Positions 1-24,622 of a stretch of DNA of 64,000 bases are shown here, in pieces (position 1 is the first letter of the stretch; each line of letters opens with the position of its first letter). The position numbers and the translations under genes are program-made. The notes beneath the pieces are model-generated. The model was not told the DNA's origin. It saw nothing but the letters and a program-made list of their open reading frames with translations, and searched no databases. This DNA comes from Candidatus Omnitrophota bacterium (GTDB lineage: Bacteria > Omnitrophota > Gorgyraeia > B26-G9). The stretch lies in assembly GCA_018817165.1 (NCBI GenBank), contig JAHITY010000118.1, forward strand, positions 6,526-70,525, given 5' to 3'.

Positions 1-3000
1 CTGGTTCGATTCAGAATATTTCGATGACATATTCAATCAATGGCGGATCAACCTATCCTAATGTTATCGCTGCTTCTGTAAACGCATCTTTGGGGGCTTA
101 TCCATGGGCAATTCCCGACGCGATCGGCAATCAGGTGAGAGTAAGAATAACGGATACAGCTAATTCAACGGTTTATGACAGTTCTGATGCTAATTTCTCA
201 ATCAAAGGTGTATTGCATCTAGATACGCCAAATGGCGGAGAAGTGCTGGAAGTTGGCTCAAGCCGAAATATAACCTGGACAGTTACTGGTTCAATTTCCA
301 ATGTTAAATTGGAATATTCAGTTGATGCCGGGGCAACTTATCCGAATGTGATCACAGCATCTTTGAACGCGGCTTTAGGCACATATGCTTGGAGTGTGCC
401 GGATAATTTGACTACACAGGCTAGAGTGAAGATAACCAATCTATCAGATCCAACTGTATATGATCAGTCAGATGCTGATTTTGATATTATTGGTCAGCTG
501 ATTATTTCAGCGCCAAATGGCGGGGAAGTTTGGCCAGTAGGTACATCCCAAGCAATTTCTTGGGTAACCATGGGTTCAATTGTCGATGTTAAATTAGATC
601 TATCGACAAATGGCGGAGTTACTTATCCCACGGTTATAACAGCAAGCACAGCGGCGAATATTGGTTCATATAGCTGGATGATTCCGGACGCGATATCGAT
701 TGCTGCCCGGATAAAAATATCGGATATCAGTAATCCATCGGTAGTTAATGATGTATCTGACGCGAATTTCAAAATCAGAGGTAATCTGACATTAACCTAT
801 CCAAATGGCGGAGAAGTTTTGCTGATAAATGATAATCGAAATATTACCTGGACACGCTTTGGTTCAATTGTTAACGCGAGAATCGATTATTCGAAAGACG
901 GGGGAGGAACATTCCCCTACTCGATTATTGGTTCAGTAAACGCTGCATTGCAGACTTATGCTTGGAATGTGCCGGATGACCCAGGAACCTTGATCAGAGT
1001 GAAAATCGCGGACGCGGCGGATTTATCTGTATATGATGTTTCTGACGGAAACTTCATTATTCGCGGTGGATTCAGCATTATTACTCCAAATGGCGGCGAG
1101 CAATGGACAGTTAATTCAGTGCATGATATTACATGGACAACATTTGGAACGATAACGAATGTGCGTTTATCGTATTCAAGTAATAATGGTTCTAATTGGA
1201 CATTGATTACTGCTACAGTTCCTAATATTGATTTGTATTCATGGACAGTCCCGGATAGAATCTCTGAGCAATGTCTGGTAAGAGTATCCGATGTTAATGA
1301 CAGCGATGCGAATGATCTATCAAATGCCGCATTTAAAATCATTGGAACTTTGACATTGACAGCGCCAAATGGGGCAGAGCAATGGGGTGTTGCTACAGCC
1401 CAGAATATTAGCTGGACAATGAATGGAACAATCGCTAATGTGAAATTAGAATATTCAACTAATAGCGGAGCAACATATCCGAATTTGATCATCGCCTCAG
1501 CAGCCGGCGCGCCGCTAAATTATGTTTGGACAATTCCGGACGCGATTTATAATACTTTGAGAGTAAGAGTTTCTGATGTTTTGGACGTGAATGTTTATGA
1601 TACATCAGATGCTGATTTTAAAATCAAAGCTGATTTTACTTTATTGGTGCCAAATGGCGGAGAAACATGGGTAGTAAATTCCGCTCAAACCATATCCTGG
1701 ACTTCATCAGGAACAGTACCGAATATCAGACTGGATTATTCCTCTAATGCGGGTGCAAGCTGGACTGTAATATCATTGTCCCTGGCTAATGCAGGGTCAT
1801 ATTCCTGGACAGTTCCGGATGCTATTTCTAGCCAATGTAAGATCAAGGTAGCTAATGCGGCTGATACCAGTGCTTATGATGAATCAAATAATAGTTTCAA
1901 GATCAGAGGTGATTTGATCTTAACCGCGCCAAATGGCGGAGAAACATGGGCTGTGGGCGGTGTAAGGGTTATTACTTGGAATAGAGTCGGATCAATTGCT
2001 AATATATTGGTTGAATACTCAGATAATGGCGGAACAAATTTTGTGCCGATCATTGCTTCCACCCCTAATACCGGATCATATGCTTGGACAGTACCGGATT
2101 CAATTACAACTCAGGCTTTAGTGAGAATCACTAATCTTGCTGATCTAACGGTAACGGATACTTCGGCAGCGGTATTTAAAATCCAAGGCAGTTTCATGAT
2201 TAGCTCCCCAAATGGCGGCGAAGGCTGGAGAGTTGGAACTAATCAGAATATTAATTGGACCTGGAATGGAACATTACCGTTTGTTAAATTGGAATATTCA
2301 ATTAATAGCGGATCTACCTATAATTTAATAGCGGATAATTTACCGAATGTGGGAACCTATTCATGGTTAATTCCAGATGCTGTAGCCGGAACTTGTAGAA
2401 TAAAAGTATCTGATCCTAATGATTCACAGGCTTATGATATATCCAATGGTGATTTTCGGATCCGCTGCGGATTTACGCTGAGTACGCCAAATGGCGCGGA
2501 ACAATGGAGAGTCGGTTCAGTGCGTAATATTACTTGGGCCAGCGTGGGAACAGCGCCAACAGTTACTTTGCAGTATTCTCGCGATGATTTTGTAACTGAT
2601 ATCCAGCCGATTGTCAGCAATCAGGTAAATGTCGGCAGTTATGCTTGGACAATTCCGGATGCAATATCAGATAATGTGAAAGTTAAAGTACTTGATTCCA
2701 ATGATATCGGAGCTGCGGATTCTTCTAATGCTGTTTTTAGAATTACCGGAGATTTTACAGTAATTGCGCCAAATGGCGGGGAAATGTGGAATGTAAATGA
2801 TATTGAAAACATTACCTGGACCTGGCTGGGAACAATGTCCCAGGTGAGAATTGAATACTCAGTTGACGGTGGCGCAAGTTATCCGAATATTATTTCAGCA
2901 ACGAATAATGACGGAGTATATGAATGGCTTGTTCCGGATAGTATTACCGCCCAATTAAGAGTGCGGGTCAGTGATTTAGCAGATTCAACGGCTTATGATA

Positions 3001-6000
3001 CATCCAATGGCAATGCTAAGATCCGAGCGTTTTTTACAATGCTTACTCCTAATGGTTCAGAAATTATGACAGTTAACAATAGCTATGGAATCACCTGGAA
3101 TAGTGTAGGCACAGTGGCTAATGTTGATCTGCATTATTCAACAGACGATTTCTTGACTGCTAATGGGATTGTCGGCTCAACGCCAAACGATGGGGCTCAT
3201 ACCTGGACTGTTCCAGATTCAATATCAACTACAGTTAAAGTAAGAGTCAAGAGTTCGACGGATAGCGATGCTTACGATATTTCCAATGCTAATTTTAAAA
3301 TCCGAGGCGCGTTTACAGTTACTTCGCCGAATGGCGGGGAATTATGGGCAATTAATCAGGTCAGAAATATTACTTGGAACACCACTGGAACAATTGCTAC
3401 TGTAAGAATTATGTATTCAACTAATTCAGGAGCAACTTATCTAAATACAGTTACCAACAGCGCGGTTAATACTGAGACCTATGCTTGGACAGTTCCGGAT
3501 ACGGCTACAGCAAACGCTCGGATCAGAGTGCTGGATGCCGCGGATGCAACGGTGTATGATGATTCAGATGCTAATTTCAGAATGCAGGGATTCTTTACTT
3601 TGAATGCGCCAAATGGCGGGGAGTATTGGATTGTTGGCTCTAGTCATAATATTACCTGGACATGGGGCGGAACTTTAGCCAGCGCAAAACTTTCTTATTC
3701 AACAGACAGCGGCATAACTTATCCGAATGTGATTAATGCCGCAGCCCCAAATGGCGCGGGAAGCGGCGGAACATTTAATTATGCTTGGACAGTACCGGAT
3801 AATATTTCCCTAACAGTCAAAGTAAAGGTGGAAGATCCAAATGATAATACTGTATTTGATGTATCTGATGATGATCTGACTATTGGCGGACAGATTATTC
3901 TTACCAGCCCGAATGGCGGAGAACGCTGGATAACCCGAGAATCGCACCCAATTACCTGGACAACAGCGGGAACCGTTCCGATTGTGGATATTAGATATTC
4001 CAAAGATAATTTTGGATTGAATAATATCTCAATAGTCAGCGGACAAGTTAATATTAATTCATATGCTTGGAGTGTGCCGGATGACAGATCATCTACTGTG
4101 AAAGTAAGAATACTTGATCCGCGTGACCCAACCAATACCTATGATGATTCAAACGCTAATTTTAAAATCGATTATTATACTATTTCGTTTGAGATCCGTG
4201 ATTTGATCACCAATGAAGAATTGTCAACTTTAACGGTTGACGCGTCATCAAATTTAGGTGATATCTGGGCAACAGCAACCATGCCGAATAATCCAGGAGC
4301 GCCTTTAGGTTCACCAGTTACAGTTGATTTACCGTATGGCTTATGGACAGCGGTATGGTCAAAAGTTAGTTTTGGAGATAAACAGGCAAGCTTTGAAGTC
4401 AACGCGGATAAAGCAATAGATACTCTGTATATGGAAACAACAGTTATTCATATATGGCGGGCATATTCAGAAGTTACCTATGAGGCAACCAATGATGTGC
4501 TGAAAATAGCTTCCTGGCTAGAAAGAGATGGATATGCGGTATCTGGCGCGGAAACAGTAACGATTGATGTATATAATGATGATGGAGTTTTGGTACACAG
4601 CTTATTTTCCGATACTCCGAATGCCGCGGGATTTTTCAATTTAAAATGGAATGCTCCCACTGGGTTATTGCCATCAGTAGTATATACGGTTGTTACTAAA
4701 ATAACTAATGCTTCAGGCGCGGAATTTAAGACTCCGACTTCATTTAATATTACAGAAACTCAACAGCTGGTTGCTACTCAAGCAGCGATGGAAAGCATGC
4801 GTGATGTTACATTGCCGGCTTTTCAATCAGGAGTTGAAGCAACGATCAATGCGGGTATTGCTGAACAAAAAACATTGATTGATACTAAGATGACTGAGCA
4901 GACAAATATTATTGATACAAAAACAACACAAATGCAACAGTCGGTTGATGCTAGTATGACGGCTTTTGAAACCAGATCGCAGGTCGCGATTGATCAGTTA
5001 CAAGAAGGTGCTGACCAGGCAACTGCGGCTGGAGCAGAGCTGGAAACTATTGCTAAACGTCAATCAGGGGAATTGATTCTGCCGACAACCGTACTGACCG
5101 GCGGAACAGTTAATATTCGTTTTAGAATAGCTTCGGGATTAATGCCATTGATGGATGTTATTAGTTATGATGGAACAATGCTGAGAAATCAACAGATATT
5201 GACTGAATCAACATCAGTTGCTGGTTTATACGGATATGATTTGTATATTGATGGTACTCAGTTTAAACCAGGTAAAGCGTTTACAGTAGTTGTAACGGAA
5301 AATTCAACCGGAAATTTACAGGCTGGGTCTGTAATGGTTGAGTCAACATCATTAACATCGATTGAAGGTTTAGCATCGTCTATCCCTCAGGTTAAATCGA
5401 TTGCGGATCAGACTTTGCAAGCGGTTGACGCATTGAAAAATACATTAGCAACCGGAGGAGATATCGGAAAGGCGCTTTCTAGTTTACAAGATTCTGTTGA
5501 TGATCTGCCAGCTTTAATGGCTAAAGAAGGCCCCAGCGCGAAAATGGCGGAAGATATTAATGCTTTGATGGAGCGCTTACAGGCTTTTGCCGGTGAAGAA
5601 GGTTATGATATTTCAGCGATGGTTGAGGACGCATTGAGTAATTCACCGACAATGAAAGAAATCAAGAGCAGAACGGAAAGTATTAAGAGTATTGTTAATT
5701 TCTTGCAGCAGTTGTTTGAGCACAAGTTTGGCGGAATGGAAGATGAGCCAATGGTTTCAACCTCATTGTCAACTGGTAGTTTGGTGGTAAATGTGGTTGC
5801 GGCTAATCCATCGAGCACTATGTCGCAGATCACAAAGGTAAAAGTTTATTTACCTAAAGAAGTCACTCCGAATGATATAATGGATACAGGCGGATTGGAT
5901 GTTGAGTTTGACGCGAATCAATCAATATACTATGTATTTAAAGATAGAATAGAACTTGCTCCTAAAGAAGTTCGCGTATTCAAAGTTGAGATAGAAGATA

Positions 6001-6464
6001 TCTGGATTATTCCGCAGACAAGTTTGGATGTGCTTAAACTTAGAGCAACGAAACTTGCCAGTGCTCTGGAATCAACAGAGTATGCACAAGCAACTAGTAA
6101 GCTAGCTGAGAAAACATATGCAGCGGTTGATGAAGTAATTGCCAAGCAGAATGATATTACGCTGAGCCGAGAGCAGCATATTGGGGCTTATCGGGCAAAT
6201 ATTCTGATGATTGATAAGCTAAAAGCAGAACTTACAGATATGGAAAAATTGATGATTGTCAATCCCGATGAGGTAGGCGCTCTTTCACCGGCAATGACTT
6301 GGAAGATCATTATTATCGTAATACTGTTTATCGGATTGCTGGCAGTGGTATTCTTCTTTACTTGGTATCGCAAAGCTGGATTAACGCAGGATGTGCTTTC
6401 TAAAGCAAAACAGTTTTCTTTTCCTGAAGAAGGGGACACTGAAAAGGAAAAAGAAAAGAAATAG
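1..6464 (+). CDS. Giant repetitive cell-surface/adhesin-like protein. It is 5'-partial because the ORF is open to the window start. It has at least 15 tandem ~94-aa Ig-like repeats resembling Kre9/KNH-type domains, then beta-rich and coiled-coil regions, then a C-terminal TM helix with a charged KEKEKK tail.
   Basis: ORF 24..6464 stays open upstream in the same frame, and the first residues GSIQNIS fit the repeat. The repeat unit is PNGGE-W-VG-I-W-G-V-L-YS-DGG-T-Y-W-VPD-YD-SD-F-I, recurring 14 times in full with a ~282-288 bp DNA period. The repeats have diverged. The hydrophobic stretch WKIIIIVILFIGLLAVVFFFTWY lies near the C-terminus. Confidence 0.8.
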   Translation, partial: GSIQNISMTYSINGGSTYPNVIAASVNASLGAYPWAIPDAIGNQVRVRITDTANSTVYDSSDANFSIKGVLHLDTPNGGEVLEVGSSRNITWTVTGSISNVKLEYSVDAGATYPNVITASLNAALGTYAWSVPDNLTTQARVKITNLSDPTVYDQSDADFDIIGQLIISAPNGGEVWPVGTSQAISWVTMGSIVDVKLDLSTNGGVTYPTVITASTAANIGSYSWMIPDAISIAARIKISDISNPSVVNDVSDANFKIRGNLTLTYPNGGEVLLINDNRNITWTRFGSIVNARIDYSKDGGGTFPYSIIGSVNAALQTYAWNVPDDPGTLIRVKIADAADLSVYDVSDGNFIIRGGFSIITPNGGEQWTVNSVHDITWTTFGTITNVRLSYSSNNGSNWTLITATVPNIDLYSWTVPDRISEQCLVRVSDVNDSDANDLSNAAFKIIGTLTLTAPNGAEQWGVATAQNISWTMNGTIANVKLEYSTNSGATYPNLIIASAAGAPLNYVWTIPDAIYNTLRVRVSDVLDVNVYDTSDADFKIKADFTLLVPNGGETWVVNSAQTISWTSSGTVPNIRLDYSSNAGASWTVISLSLANAGSYSWTVPDAISSQCKIKVANAADTSAYDESNNSFKIRGDLILTAPNGGETWAVGGVRVITWNRVGSIANILVEYSDNGGTNFVPIIASTPNTGSYAWTVPDSITTQALVRITNLADLTVTDTSAAVFKIQGSFMISSPNGGEGWRVGTNQNINWTWNGTLPFVKLEYSINSGSTYNLIADNLPNVGTYSWLIPDAVAGTCRIKVSDPNDSQAYDISNGDFRIRCGFTLSTPNGAEQWRVGSVRNITWASVGTAPTVTLQYSRDDFVTDIQPIVSNQVNVGSYAWTIPDAISDNVKVKVLDSNDIGAADSSNAVFRITGDFTVIAPNGGEMWNVNDIENITWTWLGTMSQVRIEYSVDGGASYPNIISATNNDGVYEWLVPDSITAQLRVRVSDLADSTAYDTSNGNAKIRAFFTMLTPNGSEIMTVNNSYGITWNSVGTVANVDLHYSTDDFLTANGIVGSTPNDGAHTWTVPDSISTTVKVRVKSSTDSDAYDISNANFKIRGAFTVTSPNGGELWAINQVRNITWNTTGTIATVRIMYSTNSGATYLNTVTNSAVNTETYAWTVPDTATANARIRVLDAADATVYDDSDANFRMQGFFTLNAPNGGEYWIVGSSHNITWTWGGTLASAKLSYSTDSGITYPNVINAAAPNGAGSGGTFNYAWTVPDNISLTVKVKVEDPNDNTVFDVSDDDLTIGGQIILTSPNGGERWITRESHPITWTTAGTVPIVDIRYSKDNFGLNNISIVSGQVNINSYAWSVPDDRSSTVKVRILDPRDPTNTYDDSNANFKIDYYTISFEIRDLITNEELSTLTVDASSNLGDIWATATMPNNPGAPLGSPVTVDLPYGLWTAVWSKVSFGDKQASFEVNADKAIDTLYMETTVIHIWRAYSEVTYEATNDVLKIASWLERDGYAVSGAETVTIDVYNDDGVLVHSLFSDTPNAAGFFNLKWNAPTGLLPSVVYTVVTKITNASGAEFKTPTSFNITETQQLVATQAAMESMRDVTLPAFQSGVEATINAGIAEQKTLIDTKMTEQTNIIDTKTTQMQQSVDASMTAFETRSQVAIDQLQEGADQATAAGAELETIAKRQSGELILPTTVLTGGTVNIRFRIASGLMPLMDVISYDGTMLRNQQILTESTSVAGLYGYDLYIDGTQFKPGKAFTVVVTENSTGNLQAGSVMVESTSLTSIEGLASSIPQVKSIADQTLQAVDALKNTLATGGDIGKALSSLQDSVDDLPALMAKEGPSAKMAEDINALMERLQAFAGEEGYDISAMVEDALSNSPTMKEIKSRTESIKSIVNFLQQLFEHKFGGMEDEPMVSTSLSTGSLVVNVVAANPSSTMSQITKVKVYLPKEVTPNDIMDTGGLDVEFDANQSIYYVFKDRIELAPKEVRVFKVEIEDIWIIPQTSLDVLKLRATKLASALESTEYAQATSKLAEKTYAAVDEVIAKQNDITLSREQHIGAYRANILMIDKLKAELTDMEKLMIVNPDEVGALSPAMTWKIIIIVILFIGLLAVVFFFTWYRKAGLTQDVLSKAKQFSFPEEGDTEKEKEKK

Positions 6465-6471: not shown

Positions 6472-6674
6472 AGGACTCCGAAATGACTGCTAGGCCGCAG
6501 TCATTTTGGACTAAATTCGCGCAGGCTGACTTGACGTCACAAAAAACGTTCCGTAAGTCAGGCGAAATAATAATGATTCCAAAAGTGCCTGCTAGGCCGC
6601 AGTCATTTTGGACTAAATTCGCGCAGGCTGACTTGACGTCACAAAAAACGTTCCGTAAGTCAGGCGCTCATTTT
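6472..6674 (+). repeat. Family A structured repeat, a tandem pair of copies 1 and 2, immediately after the giant gene stop
   Basis: Two near-identical ~100-nt units (6472-6564 and 6569-6674). Each has hairpin 1 (ccRaaa..gctaggccgcag..tttYgg) and hairpin 2 (gcgcaggctgacttgacg..loop..cgtaagtcaggcgc). Confidence 0.85.
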
Positions 6675-7131
6675 AAAATGTCCGAAGGACGAAAAAGCAA
6701 AAGCTGCGGGACGAAGGACGCAAAAACATGAAAGCGCTTGGCTGATGGCAAAAATTCTCTTTGAGCGGCGCTTTCGAACTTAATTTTGACAAGGATGTCA
6801 AAATAGTGAGAACGCGCGGCTGGGCCTGCACGACGCAGGCTCAGGCTTAGCGAAAAGATGTGTTTTTGCCTAATACGCACGACTTACGACGCATTTTTTT
6901 TAAAAAAGTATATCGTATTGAGTATAGGGTTTAGAGTTTTTAAAAAGTATCCTTGTCACATAACGGCGGGACAGGCAACTATATTAAGACAAAACATTAG
7001 ATTATAGGTGTAACAAGAAGCACGAATAATGAGCACTCGTTTATTTGCTAAGAAGGTGGATTTTTTCGTCTCTCGTTCTTCGTCTTAGCGAAGCGCTCGT
7101 TTTTCGGCTTCAAAGGGGGCAAAGGATTGCA

Positions 7132-7383
7132 ATGGGGGAAAAGTTATTAAATGTAACAGTGTTAAACCCGGAAAAGATTGTTTTTCAGGGTAAGGCAGAA
7201 CGCTTAATTCTGCCTGGGGAAAGTGGGGTATTCGAAATCCTGCCATTTCATAAACAACTTTTAAGTCGATTGCTAACAGGTACGATTATAATTGATGAAC
7301 AAATGATTCCTATTTACCGCGGAGTGGTACAGGTAGGGGGGAATTCTGTGACTGTTATTATCGAAGAAAAAAGAAGCACTTAA
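7132..7383 (+). CDS. atpC: F-type ATP synthase epsilon subunit. It is a short form, an N-terminal beta-sandwich only. The ORF track starts at 7045; the ATG at 7132 follows a GGGGG-rich RBS.
   Basis: LNVTVLNPEKIVFQGKAERLILPGESGVFEILPFHKQLLSRLLTGTIIIDE matches the epsilon N-terminal domain pattern. The gene sits at the head of the atp cluster. Confidence 0.6.
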   Translation: MGEKLLNVTVLNPEKIVFQGKAERLILPGESGVFEILPFHKQLLSRLLTGTIIIDEQMIPIYRGVVQVGGNSVTVIIEEKRST

Positions 7384-7416
7384 AAATTAGAGGACTAATT
7401 AGGAAGGTAAATTATT

Positions 7417-7635
7417 ATGGCAAGACAAATAATATTGCTCATGGTTTTTGCTTTGTGTATATTAGGGCCATGCGGGGTTATGGCTGCGGCGGCTTTTGCC
7501 AGCATCAGTGCTTTGGGAAGAAATCCATCAGCCGCGCCGAAAATTTTTACAGCAATGACTATAACTCTGATTTTCGCTGAAGCATTGGCAATTATCGCGA
7601 TGTTAATAATATTTCAATTGTTTCAAACTGGCTAA
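7417..7635 (+). CDS. atpE: F-type ATP synthase c subunit (proteolipid)
   Basis: 72 aa with two TM helices and a polar loop GRNPSAAPK. A conserved carboxylate lies in helix 2 (IFAEALAII). Confidence 0.7.
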   Translation: MARQIILLMVFALCILGPCGVMAAAAFASISALGRNPSAAPKIFTAMTITLIFAEALAIIAMLIIFQLFQTG

Positions 7636-7726
7636 AGGATATAATCGCGCAATAAGTTTATTTGTGTTGGATGCGGTCAAATAATGACTTATTAATACTT
7701 TTTCGGTATAATAAGAAAGACGTGTT

Positions 7727-7880
7727 GACACTGGGCAAGGTTTAATGGGAACGAAGCCCGTATCGGTAAAGTTTAACGGTTTAGGCTAAAACAATAAATT
7801 TTAATACGGCAGACGTTACCGCAAGACGAAACGGGCATCGTAACCTTGACCGCAACATTTTAAAGTTGTAATTGTAAACA
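7727..7880 (+). repeat. Family B structured repeat, copy 1, between atpE and atpF
   Basis: gacactgggcaaggttta..acgaagcccgtatcggtaa..~60 nt..gacgttaccgcaagacgaaacgggcatcgtaacc. Outer stem gcccgt/acgggc, inner stem cggtaa/ttaccg. Confidence 0.8.
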
Positions 7881-7935
7881 GGCCTTTGTTAGAGTTTACA
7901 TAAAAAAACTGATTTGATAACCATAGGGGTGCTAA

Positions 7936-8670
7936 ATGATTATAGTTAGTTTTATCCTTTTACAGATTTTTATTTTTGGAGGACTTGCTTTTTTTCTCAA
8001 ACATTTGCTTACGAGAAATGTAACCAGCGCGACGTCTCATCTTCAGGGGATGATAAAGGAGAATACCGATAAACAAGAAGAAATGCAGAAGAAGATTGAA
8101 CAAGCGGAAAAAGAATACACGGCGAAGATTAAGAAAGCAAAAGATGAAGCAGAACAAATTGAGAAACAATGCCGCAAAGAAATAGAACAGGAAAGAGATA
8201 AAATTATCACTCAAGCACATGTCCAAAGTGAAGAACTGATGACGCGGGCTAAGAAAACTTGCGAAACTATTGTGGCTGAAATGAATAAAAATGTTAATGA
8301 TAAGGCAGTGGAACGCGCGGCTGAATTAATCTGCAAAGTTTTGCCGGAAAAAAATTGTCGAGATATTCATGAAGAATGGGTAAGGTCTTTAATTAATCAG
8401 GGGTTAAATAGTTTAGATCGGCTGCGGATACCGAATGATGTATCTCAGGTTGAAGTTATTACAGCTTTCGCTTTGACTGAACAGGAAAAAGCGGATTTAC
8501 ATAAACATCTTGTGGATCATTTGGATTTAGATTTATCAATTGAGGCAAATGTTCAGCCAGAAATTGTTGCGGGGATAATTATTAATATTGGAACATTAGT
8601 TCTTGACGGCAGCTTTGCAAATAAGATCAGGGAGGTAGTACATGAGTCATTCACCGGAACCGCAGAATAA
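7936..8670 (+). CDS. atpF: ATP synthase b subunit fused to a delta (OSCP)-like C-terminus (atpF-atpH fusion)
   Basis: An N-terminal TM helix is followed by a long charged coiled coil (b-like). The C-terminus PEIVAGIIINIGTLVLDGSFANKIREV matches the delta-subunit C-terminal motif. No separate atpH is present. Confidence 0.6.
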   Translation: MIIVSFILLQIFIFGGLAFFLKHLLTRNVTSATSHLQGMIKENTDKQEEMQKKIEQAEKEYTAKIKKAKDEAEQIEKQCRKEIEQERDKIITQAHVQSEELMTRAKKTCETIVAEMNKNVNDKAVERAAELICKVLPEKNCRDIHEEWVRSLINQGLNSLDRLRIPNDVSQVEVITAFALTEQEKADLHKHLVDHLDLDLSIEANVQPEIVAGIIINIGTLVLDGSFANKIREVVHESFTGTAE

Positions 8671-10135
8671 AACTCATGATATAAAGTTTGACGTAAAGGA
8701 AGTCGGACGGGTAAAGGCTGTGCGCGAGTTTATTGTTTTAGCGGAAGATATGCCTTCCTGTGTTAATGGTCAAATTGTTGAATTTGCCAATAACTTGCGT
8801 GGGATTGTGATGGGATTTACGCAGGATGAGGTGCAGATCCTGATGCTTGGGCCAAAAGCGCAAATCCGCGCTGGCGATAAAGTATATAGTAAAGCAAAAT
8901 CTCTGTATTTGCCTGTAGGAGATGGTTTTGTCGGGAGAGTTGTTAATGCTTTGTGTGAACCAGTTGATGGGCAAGGCGAAATTAAAACTGATGATATGTT
9001 TCCGGTATTCAAAGATGCTCCGGGAATTATGGAGCGTGATACTGTTGAACGGACTTTAGAATCCGGCACCAGGATTATTGACGCGATTATGCCATTGGCA
9101 CTTGGTCAAAGGCAGCTTTTAGTCGGCGATCGGCAAACCGGTAAATCCTCGGTAACAACTGACGCTATCATAAATCAAAAAGGAAAAGATGTTATCTGCA
9201 TCTATTGTGTTATTGGAAAAACTTATTCTGGATTAGTAAAAACAATTGAATTATTTAAAGAACATAAAGTTTTTGAGTACACGATGATTGTCAGCGGGAT
9301 TGCCTCAACTTCTGTTGGCGAACAATATTTAGCGCCGTATACAGCGGCAATGATCGGCGAATATTTTATGCAACAGGGCAAAGACGTTTTAGTTGTTTTT
9401 GATGATTTAACGCGACATGCCTGGATCTATCGTCAGATCTCATTGTTGTTAAAACGCGCTCCTGGCAGAGAAGCTTATCCCGGTGATATTTTTTATACCC
9501 ATTCGCAGCTTATGGAAAGAGCCGGGCAGATGAGCAAGGCTTTGGGTGGAGGATCAATGACTTTTCTGCCGATTGTGGAAACTTTACAAGGTGATGTGGC
9601 TGGTTTTATTCCGACTAATCTTGTTTCAATGACCGATGGACAAATTTATTTTAGTTCGGCTTTATTTAATAAAGGTTTTAGACCGGCAATTGATGTTGGA
9701 CTTTCAGTATCGCGTATTGGAAATAGAGCTCAGTGGCCAGCAGTAAAAGGGCCGAGCCGTAGTTTGCGGATGGAATTTTTACAATATAAAGAGTTAGTGG
9801 CAATGACGCAGTTAAGAACTACAGAATTATCAAAAGAAGCGGAAAAAAAGTTACGGCGAGGAGAAGCAATTACCGAACTATTGATTCAAGATAAAAATAA
9901 ACCGGTATCAATGGAGCATCAGGTAGTGGATATGTACGCGCTTAATCGAGAAGTATTAGATGAATTATCGGTTGAGCAAATTAGAAAATTTAAATTAGAT
10001 TTTTATGAAAAAATTAAAGAATGGTTTCCTAATTTCTCTACAAATCTAAGGGATACTAAAATTATTGTTGATGAAAGCATTGCTAATCTTGAAGAAGCGA
10101 TTTCTTTTTATTTTAATCAGGACCAAGAAAAGTAG
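8642..10135 (+). CDS. atpA: F1 ATP synthase alpha subunit
   Basis: P-loop GDRQTGKSS. Blocks such as PGREAYPGDIFYTHSQLMERAG and LSVSRIG match alpha throughout. Confidence 0.9.
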   Translation: MSHSPEPQNKTHDIKFDVKEVGRVKAVREFIVLAEDMPSCVNGQIVEFANNLRGIVMGFTQDEVQILMLGPKAQIRAGDKVYSKAKSLYLPVGDGFVGRVVNALCEPVDGQGEIKTDDMFPVFKDAPGIMERDTVERTLESGTRIIDAIMPLALGQRQLLVGDRQTGKSSVTTDAIINQKGKDVICIYCVIGKTYSGLVKTIELFKEHKVFEYTMIVSGIASTSVGEQYLAPYTAAMIGEYFMQQGKDVLVVFDDLTRHAWIYRQISLLLKRAPGREAYPGDIFYTHSQLMERAGQMSKALGGGSMTFLPIVETLQGDVAGFIPTNLVSMTDGQIYFSSALFNKGFRPAIDVGLSVSRIGNRAQWPAVKGPSRSLRMEFLQYKELVAMTQLRTTELSKEAEKKLRRGEAITELLIQDKNKPVSMEHQVVDMYALNREVLDELSVEQIRKFKLDFYEKIKEWFPNFSTNLRDTKIIVDESIANLEEAISFYFNQDQEK

Positions 10136-10164
10136 AAGCAATTAGTAATTTGTACAATAACAAA

Positions 10165-10328
10165 GATGTGTTGATACTCGGCAAGGTTTAACGGTAACGA
10201 AGCCCGTATCGGTAATGTTAAACGGTTTAGGCTAAAAACAATAAATTTTAATACGACAGACGTTACCGTAAGCCGAAACGGGCATCGTTACCCTAATCGT
10301 AACCGTTTAAAGTTGTAAATGTAAATCT
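10165..10328 (+). repeat. Family B structured repeat, copy 2, between atpA and atpG
   Basis: About 85% identical to copy 1 over ~155 nt, including the gatgtgttgatactcggcaaggttta head. Confidence 0.8.
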
Positions 10329-10496
10329 GACTTTGTTACAGTATAAATAATTTCTAATGGCAGTTACTAAAAAGAGAAAAGATGTAAAAAATAATAGGCA
10401 AACAAGGACTGTTTTTGCTTTTGAATTTTTTGATCAGGGGTTTTTTAGGTTTTAGAAATTAGGTGTTCTGAGAGAACAGGGAACGGGGGGTTTGCG

Positions 10497-11339
10497 ATGA
10501 TTCCGATAGCACAGTTAAAAGGAGATATGGAATTTTATAAATCCTTGGGTTCCTTGATCGAAGTCTTAAAACTAGTAGCTGCCGCGCAATATCAAACTCT
10601 AGAAAAGAAGATAAAAACCTATGGTTTATATTTAGATGCTTTAAGTAATGTTTTTAGTTGGCTGGATATGCAGCAAGTAAGACATCCTTTTGTGACTAGC
10701 AGTGATAAACCAGGGGCAATTGTCGCGATAACAACTGATGCTGGTTTCTTGGGCGGTTTAAACTCTCTAGTGATGAATAAAGCATTAGAAGAAGCAAAAA
10801 TATCTGATTCTCGGATGGTAATTGTGGGGAAAAGAGGACAATTGTATGTCGAGAAACGGGAAATGGTATACGCGAATTTTCCGGGAGTTGATGATCTGAA
10901 TCGCTTGCAGCAAGCTTTAAAGTTAAGAGACTATTTAATCGAAAATGTTTTGAAAGGTAAATTCGGAAAAGTTGCTATTGTTTTTCCCCGGGCATTATCT
11001 TTTACGTCACAGCGTATCGAGGTTTTGCAAGTTTTTCCTTTTGTCTGTGAAACATCGCAGAAAATGAATAATTTACAGATTTCTGATGTTATTTTAGAAT
11101 CAAAATTTGGGGATATTGTGGAATATATGATTTATTTGTGGTTGGGGCAGAAAATATTTGAAATTTTTGGCATGGCTAGATTATCCGAACAGGCAGCAAG
11201 ATTTATGCATTTAGAAAAATGTACTGATCGGATTCAGGACTTGGATAAAAAGCTGCGATTCCAATATTTTCGGGCTAAACATGAAATTATTGATCAAAAC
11301 ATGAGAGAACTCTTTGCGGCGAGGTTATTAAATGGCTAA
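10497..11339 (+). CDS. atpG: F1 ATP synthase gamma subunit
   Basis: Position between alpha and beta, a length of 280 aa, and a C-terminal helix of the ...RAKHEIIDQNMRELFAARL type. Confidence 0.75.
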   Translation: MIPIAQLKGDMEFYKSLGSLIEVLKLVAAAQYQTLEKKIKTYGLYLDALSNVFSWLDMQQVRHPFVTSSDKPGAIVAITTDAGFLGGLNSLVMNKALEEAKISDSRMVIVGKRGQLYVEKREMVYANFPGVDDLNRLQQALKLRDYLIENVLKGKFGKVAIVFPRALSFTSQRIEVLQVFPFVCETSQKMNNLQISDVILESKFGDIVEYMIYLWLGQKIFEIFGMARLSEQAARFMHLEKCTDRIQDLDKKLRFQYFRAKHEIIDQNMRELFAARLLNG

Positions 11340-12738
11340 TAATACAGCAAAAAAAAATGTAGTAGGAATCGTTGTGGCAGTTCAAGGGCCGGTAGTCGAT
11401 GTTAAGTTTGATAACCAAGCGGATGTTCCCAATGTGTTTGATGTAATTCATACATTTACAATCGATGGCCTGAGAATAACCTTAGAAGTCGCGGAACATT
11501 CTCCCGGCAATATTGCCCGCTGTATTTCAATTAATTCAACTCAAAATTTACAAAGGAATGCCCAAGCTTTTCCCACTGGAGGAGGAATTGAAATTCCGGT
11601 TGGTGATGAGACTTATACACGATTGATGAATGTAATGGGTGAGCCGATTGACCATAAAGGTCCGATTAAAGCCACGGAAACAAGACCAATCCGCTTGGCG
11701 GAAAAAGGAACTTTTGTCAGCTTAAAAAAAGAGAGCAAAACCAAATTTGAAATAATGGAAACCGGGATTAAAATTTTTGATCTGTTGTTTCCTTTGGTAA
11801 CTGGCAGCAAGAATGGGATTCTTGGTGGCGCGGCTATGGGAAAAAGCGTGCTTACTTTGGAAATTATTCAGCATATTGTTAAGAGACATAAAGGTACTTG
11901 TGTTTTTACTGGTGCCGGAGAGCGTGTGCGTGAAGGTAATGAATTATATCATGAACTTGCCCGCCATGATATTTTAGAAAAAATGAAAATTGTATTTGGC
12001 CAAATGAATGAACCTCCGGGAGCTAGATATGAAGTCGCGATGACCGGGATTACTTTGGCGGAAAGTATTCAGCGGCAGAATAAGGATGTACTTTTGTTTA
12101 TTGATAATATTTTTCGATTTCTCCAGGCTGGTCAGGAGATATCGACACTTTTAGGCCGCGTTCCTTCAGAAACCGGATATCAGCCGACCTTGATTTCCGA
12201 GGCTGCGGAATTCCATGAACGAATTAGAACCTCTGAAGGAGGGGGAGGATCAATAACCTCAATTGAAGCTGTATATGTTCCGGCTGATGATTTAACTGAT
12301 CCCGCGGTAGTCGCGATTTTTAGCTTTCTTGATTCAGTTATTGTACTTTCCCGTGAAAAAGTGCAGCTAGGGCTTTATCCGGCGATTGATCCATTGCTTT
12401 CGTCATGCGCTAATCTTGATCCGGATATTGTGGGGAAAAGGCATTATGATGTTTCGCAACAAGTATTGCAGTTGTTTCAGCGGTATGAAGAACTGCGGAA
12501 AATAGTTTTGGTTATTGGGATCGATGAATTATCTGCTCAAGATAGGACAATTTATGAGCGGGCTCGGAAAATGCAGTTTTTTCTTACTCAACCGTTTTCA
12601 GTTGCTGAAGCTTATACCGGAAGACATGGAGAATATGTGGTTTTGGAAGATACATTATCTAGCTGCGAGCGGATAATGAGCGGTGAATTTGACCAAAAAA
12701 GAGAGGACTTGTTTTACATGATTGGGGCGCTACATTAG
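11332..12738 (+). CDS. atpD: F1 ATP synthase beta subunit. It has a divergent Walker A (GGAAMGKS) and a DELSAQD loop.
   Basis: The family signature is present throughout (GERVREGNELYHE, DELSAQDRTIYERARKMQFFLTQPFSVAE). The P-loop reads GGAAMGKS instead of the canonical GGAGVGKT. Confidence 0.9.
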   Translation: MANNTAKKNVVGIVVAVQGPVVDVKFDNQADVPNVFDVIHTFTIDGLRITLEVAEHSPGNIARCISINSTQNLQRNAQAFPTGGGIEIPVGDETYTRLMNVMGEPIDHKGPIKATETRPIRLAEKGTFVSLKKESKTKFEIMETGIKIFDLLFPLVTGSKNGILGGAAMGKSVLTLEIIQHIVKRHKGTCVFTGAGERVREGNELYHELARHDILEKMKIVFGQMNEPPGARYEVAMTGITLAESIQRQNKDVLLFIDNIFRFLQAGQEISTLLGRVPSETGYQPTLISEAAEFHERIRTSEGGGGSITSIEAVYVPADDLTDPAVVAIFSFLDSVIVLSREKVQLGLYPAIDPLLSSCANLDPDIVGKRHYDVSQQVLQLFQRYEELRKIVLVIGIDELSAQDRTIYERARKMQFFLTQPFSVAEAYTGRHGEYVVLEDTLSSCERIMSGEFDQKREDLFYMIGALH

Positions 12739-12974: not shown

Positions 12975-15164
12975 ATGGATAGAAAAATTGATGCGCGGGT
13001 AATCCGTTTGCTTAAAGAAACAAAGAATCTTGATGAGGAAAACCTAAAAAGCTGTTTTATTAAAGCAGAAAACAAACAAAACTCGCCGATTCCGATCATT
13101 GCTGCTAATACCCAAATCTCAGAAGTTGAATTATTGGAAATAATTGCTCAGGATTTCCGCACAGAATATGTTGATTTGCGTAATACCTCCATAGAAAAAT
13201 CCTTGATTAAAAAAGTTCCGGTTAAAATCGCTGCCTATTATAAATTCGCTCCGATGCATCTGGAAAATCGGCTTTTAACAATTGCCCGGGCTTATCCTTT
13301 GGATATCAAAATACTTGATGAGATAAGAACGCACCTTGGGTATAGTATTAATGTTGTATTAAGCACGGAGCAGGATGTTAATGAAATGCTTAAGAAATAC
13401 TATGGTTTGGGAGCTTCAACTGTAGAGAAGATAATTGCCCAAAAAGCATATGAACATGTGACCAGTAAAAAACAAGATGATCTGGTGGATGATCTGGAAG
13501 AAACCGGAGAATCAACCTCGGTAATTCAACTGGTAAATCAGATAATTCTCGAGGCTTTTACTAAACGGGCAACGGATATTCATATTGAGCCTTATCGCAG
13601 TAAATTGCGTTTGCGCTATCGGATTGACGGTATTCTTTATGATGCCAATGTCTCTCCGGAAATTAATAACTTCCTTATTCCGATATTGTCGCGAATTAAA
13701 CTTATGTCTAATCTGAATATTGTGGAAAAACGAGTTCCGCAAGACGGCAGAGCAATTGTTCAAGTTCAAGGGCAGACTCTTGATCTACGGGTTTCGTTTA
13801 TTCCTACGCCTCATGGGGAAAGTGTTGTAATTAGAATATTGCCTACTGTTATGTTATTTGGTTTGGATAAATTAGGTCTAACCTCTATTGAACTTGATTT
13901 TTTCAAGCAATTGATCAGCAAACCGCATGGAATTATTTTTGTTACCGGACCAACGGGTAGCGGAAAAACAACTACGCTGTATACTTGCTTATCCAGTATA
14001 AATACTAGTGAACGGAAAATAATTACAATTGAAGATCCGATTGAGTATGAGCTTGAAGGGATAACTCAAATCCAAATAACTCCGGAAGTTGGTCTGGATT
14101 TTTCTCGTGGATTGAGAAGCATGCTGCGCCATGACCCGGATGTAATGATGGTAGGAGAAGTAAGGGATTTGGAAACAGCGGAAATAGCGATAAGAGTTGC
14201 TTTGACCGGACATCTAGTTTTTTCTACATTGCATACTAATGATGCTGCTAGCGGAATAACTCGTTTAATTGATATAGGCCTTGAGCCTTATTTAGTAGCT
14301 TCCAGTGTGGACGCGTTTATTGCGCAGCGTTTGCTGCGGCTGAATTGTCCGCATTGTAAAGCAGAAGATATTCAGGTAGTCCCAGGATTAAAAGCGCAAA
14401 TATTAAAAGAACTTGGTAAAAATGATGATGAAGAAATTAAAATTTATCGGAGCAAAGGCTGCCAAGCTTGTAATTTTACTGGTTTCTATGGTAGAACCGC
14501 GATACATGAAATATTAGTACTGAATGAGAAATTAAAAGCACTTACAGCAAAAAAAGCATCAAGCGATGAAATTAAAAAATGCGCGGTGGCTGATGGAATG
14601 AAGACATTACGCCAGAGTGGCTGGATCAAAGTCTTGGAAGGTCAAACAACCGCGGATGAAGTCTTAAGAGTTACTCAGGCTGATGTTTTACCGGAAAATA
14701 TGATATCGGTTGAGCAAGCTACATATGATTTTAAAAAAGATGAAAAGCCTTCTAAAATGCTTAAATTGGAGATGCCTGAAAAAATAGAACAAACAATAAA
14801 GTCTCATGATCAGCGTATTCACGAGCGAATAGAAAACAAGTTATATTTGCATTATAAAATGTTTAAAACAAAAACAAAAGATTCCGGAGAGCTGGAATAT
14901 GAGCCGGAGCTTATCGGAGTTACTAAGAATATTAGTGCCGGAGGAGTATTGCTGAATTCTGTGGAATATATTTCAAAAGGGACGATTCTGGATGTTAATA
15001 TGGAAATGCCTAATAATGAGAGAAAAATAGAATGTTTAGCAAGGGTTATTCGCTGTACAGAGGTTGTTCCTGATAAAAATTATGAAATAGCGATTTGTTT
15101 TTTAGATTTAGCAAGTGCCGAAAGAAGCAGACTTAATCGCTATATAAACAGTGTAAGCTCATAG
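12975..15164 (+). CDS. gspE: GspE/PilB-family secretion ATPase with a C-terminal PilZ (c-di-GMP receptor) domain
   Basis: GspII_E N-terminal domains, Walker [11 protein letters not shown], and the tetracysteine motif CPHCK...CQACNFTGFYGR. The last ~130 aa carry RIHER (RxxxR) followed by NISAGG (NxSxGG), typical of PilZ. Confidence 0.85.
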   Translation: MDRKIDARVIRLLKETKNLDEENLKSCFIKAENKQNSPIPIIAANTQISEVELLEIIAQDFRTEYVDLRNTSIEKSLIKKVPVKIAAYYKFAPMHLENRLLTIARAYPLDIKILDEIRTHLGYSINVVLSTEQDVNEMLKKYYGLGASTVEKIIAQKAYEHVTSKKQDDLVDDLEETGESTSVIQLVNQIILEAFTKRATDIHIEPYRSKLRLRYRIDGILYDANVSPEINNFLIPILSRIKLMSNLNIVEKRVPQDGRAIVQVQGQTLDLRVSFIPTPHGESVVIRILPTVMLFGLDKLGLTSIELDFFKQLISKPHGIIFVTGPTGSGKTTTLYTCLSSINTSERKIITIEDPIEYELEGITQIQITPEVGLDFSRGLRSMLRHDPDVMMVGEVRDLETAEIAIRVALTGHLVFSTLHTNDAASGITRLIDIGLEPYLVASSVDAFIAQRLLRLNCPHCKAEDIQVVPGLKAQILKELGKNDDEEIKIYRSKGCQACNFTGFYGRTAIHEILVLNEKLKALTAKKASSDEIKKCAVADGMKTLRQSGWIKVLEGQTTADEVLRVTQADVLPENMISVEQATYDFKKDEKPSKMLKLEMPEKIEQTIKSHDQRIHERIENKLYLHYKMFKTKTKDSGELEYEPELIGVTKNISAGGVLLNSVEYISKGTILDVNMEMPNNERKIECLARVIRCTEVVPDKNYEIAICFLDLASAERSRLNRYINSVSS

Positions 15165-15257
15165 CAGCGATTTTGAACAAAAGAAGATCAGGTTATTGCG
15201 CTGGAAAAACTGGCTTAGCCGACATGCAAGTGAGTGTAATGCATAGGATGGGGCTTT

Positions 15258-15746
15258 ATGGGTGTGTATAAATATCAGGCAACAAAGAATATTTCTGGGG
15301 TTACCATTGAATCAATAATCTATGCTGATACCATTGAAGAAGCTTTTGAGAAAATAGTAGAAATGGGCTATTCACCGGAAAAAATAGAAGAGATTAATGC
15401 TCCTGATCGCAGGGTAAATGAGCGATTAGAAATAGGGTTAAAGTTTGTTTATAGCCGGTTTAAAACCGGACAGGCTAAAGGGAGAACAAGAGAAGCTTTT
15501 ACTCAAAATATTAGTTCAGGGGGAATGCTTTTTCAATCAGAAATATCTTTTGATATCGGAACGATTTTGGATGTTGAATTGTATTTACCGGAAGGGCTAG
15601 ATGATATTAAGTGTTTGTGCCGAGTAATCCGAAGCGATCAAATAAATCAACAGGCAAATCAGTATAATATAGCAGCGTGTTTCTTAGATCTGCCTAATTC
15701 TGAGCGTTCTAGAATAAATGATTATATAACACAGCAGAAAAGATAA
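15258..15746 (+). CDS. Small two-module protein: a GspF/PilC N-terminal-domain look-alike (~48 aa) fused to a canonical PilZ domain
   Basis: The N-terminus MGVYKYQATKNISGVTIESIIYADTIEEAFEKIVEMGYSPEKIEE aligns with the N-terminus of the next gene, MGLFKYKAKKGPNKIIKSVINASSRQEAIDRISEMGYLPIFIEE. The C-terminal half has RRVNER (RRxxxR) followed by NISSGG and is closely paralogous to the PilZ tail of the upstream ATPase (GTILDV, CFLDL..ERSR.N.YI). Confidence 0.6.
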   Translation: MGVYKYQATKNISGVTIESIIYADTIEEAFEKIVEMGYSPEKIEEINAPDRRVNERLEIGLKFVYSRFKTGQAKGRTREAFTQNISSGGMLFQSEISFDIGTILDVELYLPEGLDDIKCLCRVIRSDQINQQANQYNIAACFLDLPNSERSRINDYITQQKR

Positions 15747-15748
15747 AA

Positions 15749-16972: not shown

Positions 16973-16973
16973 A

Positions 16974-17837
16974 TTGAAAATAAAAAAAACAGTTACTTAT
17001 CTTTTATTTTTTTTATTGATATTTTGCTATAGGCTGAGTTTCGCTGAACAGGGATGGACTCAGCTAAATTCAGATCATTTTATTGTCTATTATCAAGATA
17101 GCGATAAAAATTTTGCTGCTGATGTAGCAAGAAAAGCCGAGGAATATTATAATTCTATTGCCGACAACTTAGGATATGTGCGTTATTCGAATTTTTGGAA
17201 ATGGGATAAAAGAGTTAAAATTTATATTTATCCGGATCATGCGTCCTATCTTTTAGCGACTAATCAGCAGAGCTGGTCGCATGGAGTCGCGGATTATTTT
17301 AAAAAAGAAATAATTAGTTATGCCTGGGGAAAAGATTTTTTAAAATCGCTTTTACCTCATGAATTGGCACATCTAATATTCAGAGATTTTGTTGGCTTTA
17401 AGTCGGATATTCCTTTGTGGCTAGATGAAGGAGTTGCCCAATGGGAGGAAACGGAGTTAAAAGCCCAAAGACTTTCTCTGGTCAGGCAGCAAGCAAGCCA
17501 AAATATAATATTGCCAATTAGGACGATGATTGACCTGGACATAAGAACAATCGAAACTGACCAGCAGATAAAGCTGGAAGGTATGGCCTTGGATAATGGG
17601 CAAATCCCGATTCTGGAAATGGATGGAAGGGCTCTGGTTAATATTTATTATTTACAGGCTTTTTCTTTGGTAGGATTTTTAATGGAAAGATATGGGGCAG
17701 AAAGCTTTGTTGTTTTTAGTCGCCAGTTGCGAGATGGTAAGACAATTAGTGATGCTTTGAAATTTGCTTATCCACAGCAATTGCGGAGTATTGAACAACT
17801 GGAAAAACAATGGAAACAATATTTATTGAACGCTTAA
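16974..17837 (+). CDS. Secreted HExxH zinc-metallopeptidase-like protein of the peptidase MA-like fold. It has a TTG start.
   Basis: N-terminal signal peptide, then HELAHLIF (HExxH) with EGVAQWEE downstream. It is embedded between gspF and gspG. Confidence 0.45.
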   Translation: MKIKKTVTYLLFFLLIFCYRLSFAEQGWTQLNSDHFIVYYQDSDKNFAADVARKAEEYYNSIADNLGYVRYSNFWKWDKRVKIYIYPDHASYLLATNQQSWSHGVADYFKKEIISYAWGKDFLKSLLPHELAHLIFRDFVGFKSDIPLWLDEGVAQWEETELKAQRLSLVRQQASQNIILPIRTMIDLDIRTIETDQQIKLEGMALDNGQIPILEMDGRALVNIYYLQAFSLVGFLMERYGAESFVVFSRQLRDGKTISDALKFAYPQQLRSIEQLEKQWKQYLLNA

Positions 17838-17867
17838 ATTGAAAATTGAAATAAATGGGGGTAGGAT

Positions 17868-18272: not shown

Positions 18273-18274
18273 AA

Positions 18275-19377: not shown

Positions 19378-19396
19378 TTTAATATTAATAAGGTCT

Positions 19397-21935: not shown

Positions 21936-21964
21936 TTTAATAAAAATATATTTAGGGATCACAT

Positions 21965-22788: not shown

Positions 22789-22825
22789 AATTTGTTAAAT
22801 ATTGAACATAAGGGGAGGATACATA

Positions 22826-24010: not shown

Positions 24011-24019
24011 GGTATTAAA

Positions 24020-24610: not shown

Positions 24611-24622
24611 AAGGAGAATATA

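Follow-up and report, generated by a model that had tools for sequence, protein, structure and literature searches.

The window analysed here is a 64,000-nucleotide (nt) stretch of contig JAHITY010000118.1 from a Candidatus Omnitrophota assembly, and it is a segment of a bacterial chromosome of that phylum. The first gene, at positions 1-6464, supplies the C-terminal 2,153 amino acids (aa) of what is probably a giant surface fibre, specific to the Omnitrophota and anchored in the membrane with type-I topology, in which an array of Kre9/KNH-like immunoglobulin (Ig)-type repeats is followed by a conserved stalk and an anchor with a single transmembrane (TM) helix. Judged from the sequences compared, the anchor is a conserved and separable domain family that is absent from annotation. 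The names are applied to the module at aa 1391-2153, with 'stalk' denoting its first ~520 aa and 'anchor' its last ~240 aa. The parts of the gene are as follows.

3-227, + strand: partial Kre9/KNH-like Ig unit, the C-terminal 75 aa of a unit; the open reading frame (ORF) is open to the window edge.
228-4193, + strand: 14 complete tandem Kre9/KNH-like Ig-type units of 93-100 aa (aa 76-1397), each opening with PNG[GAS]E.
4173-4745, + strand: stalk part 1, two beta-sandwich domains (aa ~1391-1581) with the signatures METT.HIWRA and SWLERDG, which are invariant columns (AlphaFold predicted local distance difference test, pLDDT, 70-91).
4752-5063, + strand: stalk part 2, a long helix or coiled coil (aa ~1584-1687; helices 194-209 and 214-297 of the model, pLDDT 51-70).
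5070-5342, + strand: stalk part 3, a beta-sandwich (aa ~1690-1780), for which some orthologues give a weak FlgD_ig-like match.
5397-5744, + strand: stalk part 4, a helical region closing with a conserved KFGG..P.VSTSL strand (low-confidence AlphaFold), the point of gene splitting in at least nine loci.
5745-6299, + strand: extracytoplasmic part of the anchor, a beta-sandwich (aa 1926-1998, VxAxNPS...YLPxE) and a three-helix bundle (aa 2005-2086, SRxQHIGxYRxN), with an AlphaFold pLDDT of 88.
6300-6365, + strand: the single TM helix, WKIIIIVILFIGLLAVVFFFTW, aa 2100-2121.
6366-6464, + strand: 32-aa cytoplasmic tail, YRK...AKQFSFPEE...KEKEKK, with a conserved AKxxxFP motif, and the stop codon.

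Relatives of this gene were collected by a locus scan of one genome per GTDB species, using a query alignment of 5 sequences (an 11-sequence alignment was too diverse). The scan returned 57 loci, nearly all from Omnitrophota metagenome-assembled genomes (MAGs) or single-cell genomes. A few loci (L007, L008, L013-L015, L023, L025, L027, L028, L049 and others) are labelled as Planctomycetia/Planctomycetales, Deltaproteobacteria or Patescibacteria, labels that are probably due to mis-binning or mis-classification. Homologues of aa 1391-2153 are all 'hypothetical proteins', and those with a source name are almost all from Omnitrophota MAGs.

Frame 3 of the + strand is free of stops from base 3 to a TAG at 6462-6464 and translates into 2,153 codons. 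The start of the ORF lister's call (24..6464) is the first internal ATG, and the frame itself reaches the window edge in mid-repeat, so the gene really extends past the 5′ edge. A 91%-identical orthologue (L002) reaches its contig edge after at least 4,326 aa, with 38 units. Six further loci (L004, L006, L016, L017, L054 and L055), with single-cell genomes among their sources, have ORFs of at least 6,260-6,480 aa that are open still after the 10-kb upstream flank, and the first four of these carry 57-58 Kre9/KNH-like units each, as counted with a hidden Markov model (HMM) of the unit. In most orthologous loci the ORF is not closed within this flank, what look like upstream stops in L009, L010 and L021 come from N-gaps or frameshifts within the repeats, and long database relatives are nearly all 5′-truncated fragments. 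The only Kre9-type orthologue with a true start is L008, an apparently complete protein of ~5,985 aa that opens with a signal peptide, continues with a 370-aa unique domain and then has 49 units. Its N-terminus shows an Arg-rich n-region, a hydrophobic core and a cleavage site between AEA and R (...LKAFLGTLTTLCLAAAFIVGLGTGSAEA, then RT), and a database search with the N-terminal domain found no homologues, matching only stray Kre9 units. On these comparisons, the portion in the window would be roughly the last third to half of the whole protein.

The repeat units were delimited by splitting the translation at PNG[GAS]E, and a search with an HMM of these units yields 15 copies, none of them past aa 1397. 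The Pfam family Kre9_KNH (PF10342) matches the repeat in 5 stretches (E=2.2e-15, 57.6 bits against a cut-off of 24.6), and NCBIfam has no match for the giant protein. Units are 33-55% identical to one another in protein sequence (mean 43%) and 51-63% in DNA sequence (mean 57%, compared with 48% for shuffled units). Tandem Repeats Finder (TRF) detected no tandem array, and a repeat search found a 279-300 nt periodicity in which the best segments (35-90 nt) are only 60-77% identical. Given the moderate DNA identity, the lack of a TRF array and the low identity of the best segments, the units are old duplications that short reads can resolve, and not collapsed exact repeats. The whole 2,153 aa align gap-free to two other assemblies (91% identity with L002 and 88% with L011), and this collinearity therefore gives independent support for the unit count. 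A first-pass annotation of the window had described at least 15 diverged, Kre9/KNH-like units of ~94 aa that fill the first 4.2 kb, had read them as old duplications and not artefacts, and had expected the gene to continue upstream; all of this holds, with 14 full units and one partial one at nt 3-4193, a family match far above its cut-off and orthologues of two to three times the length. Within the array, a [ND][IV][TSN]W motif, mostly NITW or NISW, occurs in 9 of the 14 full units (228-4193), and Thr, Ser and Asn make up ~30% of the repeat region, which contains 27 N-x-S/T sequons. This pattern may be structural or a sign of glycosylation.

The stalk and anchor together (763 aa) are 29-91% identical to orthologues across their full length. 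Nothing significant was found for this C-terminal module in Pfam, NCBIfam or a PDB profile search. An AlphaFold model of aa 1391-2153, made with a 12-sequence alignment (pLDDT 67, predicted template modelling score, pTM, 0.25), gives the order two beta-sandwiches, a helix of ~85 residues, a third beta-sandwich, poorly predicted helices, a fourth beta-sandwich, three helices and the TM helix, in agreement with the first-pass description of heterogeneous beta-rich and coiled-coil segments after the repeats. With this model, Foldseek returned only generic multi-beta-sandwich, macroglobulin (MG) or Ig-like matches, such as the MG domains of complement C3, at a TM-score of ~0.11.

The anchor alone is better predicted. 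A model from 64 sequences (pLDDT 88, pTM 0.66) has a beta-sandwich at residues 12-84, a three-helix bundle at 91-172 and a long TM helix, and no relative was found in Pfam, NCBIfam or the PDB, the best PDB match by Foldseek having E=0.14. An exhaustive phmmer search of the window anchor against 1.84 billion representatives gave 821 clusters at E<=1e-3, of which 616 reach E<=1e-10, with the best E-values reaching 8e-90, and all matches with a source name are from Omnitrophota or the 'PVC group'. The anchor occurs in three architectures: at the C-terminus of proteins of 2-5 thousand aa (kaa), as a stand-alone protein of ~245-300 aa, and in proteins of 410-690 aa that have 2-3 tandem copies before the TM helix. 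Among individual homologues, P0025 and P0035 (1.85-2.03 kaa) are complete and have classic N-terminal signal peptides and three anchor copies, and a paralogue, P0029 (L063:3315-5186), has two anchor copies and a TM helix followed by a cytoplasmic GGDEF diguanylate cyclase domain. In P0029 the extracytoplasmic anchor module is thus wired to cyclic di-GMP (c-di-GMP) synthesis; in L061, a receiver-GGDEF gene lies between the anchor and the ATPase genes.

The separability of the anchor is also evident from gene fission. In at least nine orthologous loci (L015, L022, L025, L038, L043, L044, L047, L051 and L055, and also in L059-L063) the giant ORF ends just after KFGG..P.VST.L, and the remaining ~230 aa are encoded by a gene of their own, of 265-290 aa, with a signal peptide (for example, MKRSKIICVMLIAVAFCTLAFA followed by DLKLRVVAVNPSE in L038). 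A signal peptide of their own is also present on many of 491 database anchor homologues. The giants of split loci end in a conserved PVVxSx-hydrophobic strand (...EPVVSTSLVSE* or ...KPVTQTWYEYK*, for example), and this strand may be an interface for docking or strand donation. In the fused model the region is predicted with low confidence as a strand, and its pLDDT is below 50 in the anchor-only model, which was built from the split-anchor alignment.

The only hydrophobic stretch in the 2,153 aa is at aa 2100-2121, and it has no Lys or Arg in the preceding 15 aa and four in the following 15 aa. The signal peptides of relatives, the GGDEF domain behind the TM helix of P0029 and this positive-inside charge bias together establish the predicted topology, with the passenger, the stalk and the anchor body outside the cytoplasmic membrane and the tail inside. 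The first-pass annotation had placed a hydrophobic helix 40 residues from the C-terminus, in front of a KEKEKK tail; the helix and the tail stand, and the distance is corrected to 32 residues. Its suggestion of a C-terminal TM anchor on an extracellular bulk fits the same three observations. It had also called this topology unusual for a diderm, and the puzzle is a real one, since the window encodes a secretin and the cell is therefore probably diderm.

Directly downstream of the giant gene is a cassette that recurs with it.

7132-12738, + strand: F-type ATPase cluster, with short epsilon (7132-7383), c (7417-7635), b-delta fusion (7936-8670), alpha (8642-10135), gamma (10497-11339) and beta (11332-12738).
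12975-22504, + strand: type II secretion system (T2SS)-like operon without its own secretin, with GspE-PilZ, PilZ, GspF, peptidase MA_2, GspG, three more pseudopilin-like genes, a PilM/PilN fusion and a GspM-like gene.

The epsilon gene is the first of the ATPase cluster, and its short product (~83 aa) has the beta-sandwich only. The ion-binding Glu of subunit c and the P-loops of alpha and beta are intact, and alpha closely resembles the canonical F1 alpha of bacteria (E~1e-132). The best 60 PDB matches of alpha are all named as ATP synthase or F1-ATPase alpha chains (E 1e-139 to 1e-106). No ATP-synt_A match to subunit a was found among the window ORFs, and no subunit-a Arg motif in 58 related loci.

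Every locus that contains the anchor TM end (58/58) has an epsilon gene behind the anchor, in the same orientation. The gap between them has a median of ~100 nt, is at most 50 nt in 25 loci and is replaced by an overlap of 5-11 nt in several. The order eps-c-b/delta-alpha-gamma-beta-GspE-PilZ-GspF is kept, in essentially all sufficiently long loci, down to ~28% identity of the giant protein (tblastn), with some rearrangements: a peptidase MA_2 or GGDEF response regulator gene is inserted in some loci, and alpha is moved or duplicated in others. The contexts of stand-alone and multi-copy anchors, which were chosen solely for long contigs, add variation of the passenger. The same cassette lies behind a Kelch/DUF2341/Laminin_G_3 passenger in L059, a DUF2341 and Kre9 passenger in L061, a Kre9 passenger in L062 and unannotated passengers in L060 and L064, and the stalk is recognisably kept in L059 and L062. 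Because loci with Kelch, LamG or DUF2341 passengers keep the stalk, the anchor, the ATPase genes and the T2SS-like genes, the conserved unit, as far as gene content can tell, is made up of these four, and the passenger is variable. A complete small version of the locus is seen in L064 (ENA ERZ21828307 contig-100_428). Upstream it has genes for a PilZ protein, MerR, an AAA ATPase, a secretin, a TPR protein and two FGE-sulfatase-domain proteins, followed by a 1,851-aa cargo with three anchor copies; downstream of the cargo are eps, c, b-delta, two alpha paralogues, gamma, beta, GspE, GspF and GspG.

A surface fibre of this design would probably work as follows. The protein would be exported by the Sec pathway through an N-terminal signal peptide of the kind seen in its relatives, and its dozens of Kre9/KNH-type Ig modules would form an extended rod at ~4 nm per module, that is, ~60 nm for the 15 units of the window and more than 200 nm for the 57-58 units of orthologues. 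Such a rod would be comparable to the reported cell size of these bacteria (~0.2 µm). It would be carried on the conserved ~520-aa stalk of beta-sandwiches and coiled coil, which the ~240-aa anchor would hold in the cytoplasmic membrane, with a covalent join here and a non-covalent one in split loci. The giant gene is then best regarded as the variable cargo slot of a phylum-wide cassette of giant, anchor, F-type ATPase lacking subunit a, and T2SS-like pseudopilus system. Most likely this machinery is expressed together with the protein and helps to display it, presumably by way of the pseudopilus system and a secretin, and the protein could serve as an attachment fibre to surfaces or host cells.

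Several observations weigh against the surface-fibre interpretation or parts of it. The term adhesin would follow from the Ig-type repeats and from published ideas on lifestyle. The N-terminus of the window protein and of its close relatives was not recovered, and the signal peptide is known from more distant members of the family. The model of the whole C-terminal module is of moderate quality only. Conserved gene order could stem from vertical inheritance and not from function. Co-transcription in the window is uncertain, with 667 nt between the giant gene and epsilon and a duplicated element before the latter. An outer membrane is likely from the presence of the secretin, and a fibre anchored in the inner membrane would have to cross it.

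The duplicated element lies at 6481-6666, where 84 nt occur twice in tandem (98% identical, at 102-nt spacing). The window has no further copy of it, and a 94%-identical stretch is found at the equivalent place in L011. A candidate ORF at this site (orf82, 6483-6731, 82 aa) was rejected as a gene, since it translates the duplicated element (ARPQSFWTKFAQADLTSQKTFRKSG twice). A promoter and terminator scan of the 667-nt gap was uninformative, and Rfam gave only a plant miRNA family far under its gathering score.

The recurrence of the cassette invites a stronger proposal, one that we offer tentatively and consider unlikely on balance. The anchor may be the adaptor of a previously unrecognised envelope machine unique to the Omnitrophota, in which interchangeable giant fibres, fused to the anchor or docked on it by a terminal strand, would be kept at a complex of the ATPase lacking subunit a and the pseudopilus system, with ATP hydrolysis deploying, retracting or moving the fibre through a secretin. 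If true, this would amount to a rotary-ATPase-assisted device for surface display or motility in a diderm, used for attachment to prey or host. A related and similarly doubtful alternative is direct mechanical coupling, in which the TM helix and tail of the anchor engage this ATPase, the T2SS-like platform or both, so that hydrolysis extrudes, moves or tensions the fibre, in functional analogy to the gliding legs of Mycoplasma mobile, which an F1-like ATPase drives. Anchor and epsilon are adjacent in 58/58 loci, and in several of these the stop and start codons overlap, which is what coupling would predict; the adjacency persists through passenger swaps, gene fission and local rearrangements. 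The anchor TM helix and AKxxxFP tail are conserved, subunit a was found neither in the window nor in the fetched loci, and a probable V/A-type ATPase operon at 62.5 kb could handle housekeeping ion pumping. However, the alpha subunit is very near to ordinary bacterial F1 alpha, c keeps its Glu, and gamma, epsilon and b-delta are present, so that a normal ion-driven or ion-pumping enzyme with subunit a (atpB) encoded elsewhere is entirely possible.

A role as a cell coat or S-layer-like envelope protein, in which many anchored copies would make up a protective or spacing layer, is quite unlikely. The repeats are rich in Thr, Ser and Asn and in sequons, C-terminal TM anchors are classical in some archaeal S-layer glycoproteins, a coat role has been proposed for another giant protein (that of V. 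archaeovorus), and the gene appears to be core and vertically inherited, all of which would suit a coat. A linear Ig rod of 200 nm is nevertheless unlike lattice-forming S-layer proteins, and no lattice-forming domain was detected in the protein. The swaps between Kelch, LamG and DUF2341 passengers from one lineage to another suggest diversification that faces a ligand.

A reading of the C-terminal helix as a cleaved sorting signal (for sortase, exosortase, rhombosortase or a type IX secretion system (T9SS) C-terminal domain), with the protein released or covalently attached to the wall, is very improbable. The hydrophobic helix and its basic residues do resemble LPXTG, PEP-CTERM and GlyGly-CTERM signals superficially, and a conserved peptidase MA_2 gene accompanies the locus. 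Yet no LPXTG, PEP-CTERM, GlyGly, PGF or RTX motif occurs in the 2,153 aa (the RTX count being 0), and no NCBIfam model of a sortase, exosortase, rhombosortase or T9SS sorting domain matches. The tail behind the helix is 30-45 aa long and has a conserved motif of its own, and in P0029 its place is taken by a whole GGDEF domain. With signal peptides in front, the GGDEF domain after the helix and the positive-inside bias, the helix is therefore best regarded as a permanent TM anchor. A giant that is tail-anchored within the cytoplasm, the 'TM-only' reading common for other Omnitrophota giants, is more remote still. The N-terminus of the window gene is unseen, and Nielsen and Lui predict that 46% of giants of at least 10 kaa are TM-only; against this stand the signal peptides on L008, P0025, P0035 and all split anchors, the P0029 domain order, the charge bias and the Kre9_KNH domain, which is typical of extracytoplasmic proteins. 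That the array is a pseudogene or was mis-assembled from short reads is just as improbable: most orthologous contigs do break within it and some have N-gaps or frameshifts, but long exact repeats are absent from units of this diversity, two independent assemblies are collinear without gaps, and contigs of 640-685 kb as well as single-cell genomes contain ORFs that stay intact over more than 18 kb.

With regard to the remainder of the window, two further groups of genes follow the cassette.

22802-25387, + strand: PGK, a lone pseudopilin and TIM.
25466-36602, + strand: type IV pilus cluster with three T2SSE-family ATPases, PilC, PilM/N, PilO and a secretin (34704-36602).

Two pilus-type systems are thus found in succession at 12975-36602. 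A probable second rotary ATPase operon runs from 62558 to the window end at 64000, where a 207-aa protein like the V/A-ATPase stalk subunit E/G (a weak V-ATPase_G match) is followed by a DUF2764 protein (E=8.5e-51) cut by the window edge; DUF2764 is a family that we take to be a component of V-type ATPase operons. All credible genes of the 64 kb, and all gene-like ORFs of at least 100 aa, are on the + strand. GC skew is positive in every 2-kb bin (0.11-0.28), and G+C content is ~42% in the giant gene and drops to 31-38% further along.

The Omnitrophota are abundant, uncultivated and ultra-small bacteria, suspected of being predators or parasites of other cells. Three signatures of 'symbiosis' in this phylum, namely giant ORFs, odd F-type ATPases and clusters of pilus or secretion genes, have been published apart, and at least one giant family is physically part of an ATPase/T2SS-like cassette. 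The analysis shows a modular design of variable passenger, conserved stalk and separable anchor, and it yields an unannotated domain family in 821 clusters and a clear predicted topology for one class of giants. Two hypotheses on partners, the anchor with the ATPase and the anchor with the T2SS platform, can be tested.

Giant ORFs have been reported from the Omnitrophota, as have loci of an F-type ATPase and type-4a pilus in every class, with suggested roles in attachment and motility (Seymour et al. 2023, PMC10066038). The downstream genes of the window fit the description of these 'symbiotic' loci. The main text of that paper differs in treating giant ORFs separately and has no giant or anchor as a fixed first member of the loci; it also groups the Omnitrophota ATPase clade with Mycoplasma types 2/3 (PMC10066038), whereas the window alpha, by its best PDB matches, looks more like canonical F1 alpha. 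Giants of the Archaeovorin and Dockerin types exceed 30 kaa and have many TM helices, SecA-DEAD, and C39 or dockerin/TSP3 domains, with a Tad/T2SS-like locus before them and PilZ genes after (West-Roberts et al. 2023, bioRxiv 10.1101/2023.11.21.568195). A catalogue of 916 proteins of at least 10 kaa also notes an 'incomplete F1F0 apparatus' (Nielsen and Lui 2026, bioRxiv 10.64898/2026.06.07.730766).

The window family shares with these published giants the phylum, long repetitive membrane-associated proteins with predicted adhesion-type domains, and proximity to type II/type IV secretion-pilus genes and to PilZ or c-di-GMP genes. The expectation of the first-pass annotation, that the protein would fit the giant adhesin-like proteins of small-celled, host-associated phyla, accordingly suits its organism, an omnitrophote, in whose phylum giant adhesin-like ORFs are documented. 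The published giants differ in size (10-147 kaa), in their many TM helices, in their SecA-DEAD, C39 peptidase, dockerin/TSP3 or multi-enzyme content and in a secretion locus (gspD, rcpC, rotamase) upstream. By contrast, members of the window family have ~6 kaa (from one apparently complete example), one C-terminal TM helix, Kre9_KNH repeats and a stalk and anchor of their own, and lie directly upstream of an F-type ATPase. Pfam found no SecA, C39, dockerin or TSP3 domain in the window protein. Kre9 repeats go unmentioned in the main texts of Seymour, West-Roberts, and Nielsen and Lui, and in neither of the two giant-gene preprints does the main text describe adjacency of giant genes to ATP synthase.

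The repeat unit belongs with Kre9/KNH proteins (PF10342) by its match above the gathering threshold, and TM-anchored proteins of the window family have up to 58 or more copies of the domain in a row. Elsewhere the Kre9/KNH domain is present once or a few times per protein, on T9SS-sorted proteins or on fungal proteins with a glycosylphosphatidylinositol anchor, as the weak database matches also show. A resemblance in principle to the giant Ig-repeat adhesins of Gram-negative bacteria (LapA, SiiE and MpIBP/RTX) lies in the long tandem Ig-like rod that projects a distal region from the cell. These adhesins have C-terminal RTX repeats, a type I secretion system (T1SS) signal and an N-terminal plug that keeps them in the outer membrane. 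The window protein has no RTX motifs or nonapeptide repeats and no Pfam or NCBIfam match to the RTX/T1SS class; it ends in a TM helix, and its relatives carry Sec signals.

Two further systems resemble the window protein in part. Thermotoga Omp-alpha and archaeal S-layer glycoproteins place a coiled-coil or Ig-rich body on a single C-terminal hydrophobic helix. This anchoring plan is similar to that of the window protein, which differs in having no SLH domain or S-layer signature and no match in sequence or fold. Gli349 and Gli521 of Mycoplasma mobile are, likewise, very large TM-anchored surface proteins that are functionally tied to an F1-type ATPase. Mycoplasma is wall-less, its gliding genes are not beside those of the ATPase, and this ATPase is without c, b and delta; in each of these respects M. 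mobile differs from the window, where the giant gene and the ATPase cluster adjoin and c and b-delta are encoded. In the literature searched, which was non-exhaustive and comprised main texts, no description of the anchor domain or of its fixed linkage to the ATPase was found. Within these texts the giant ORFs and the ATPase/pilus loci of the Omnitrophota were already known separately, and it is the anchor domain and the fixed linkage that are newly delineated here.

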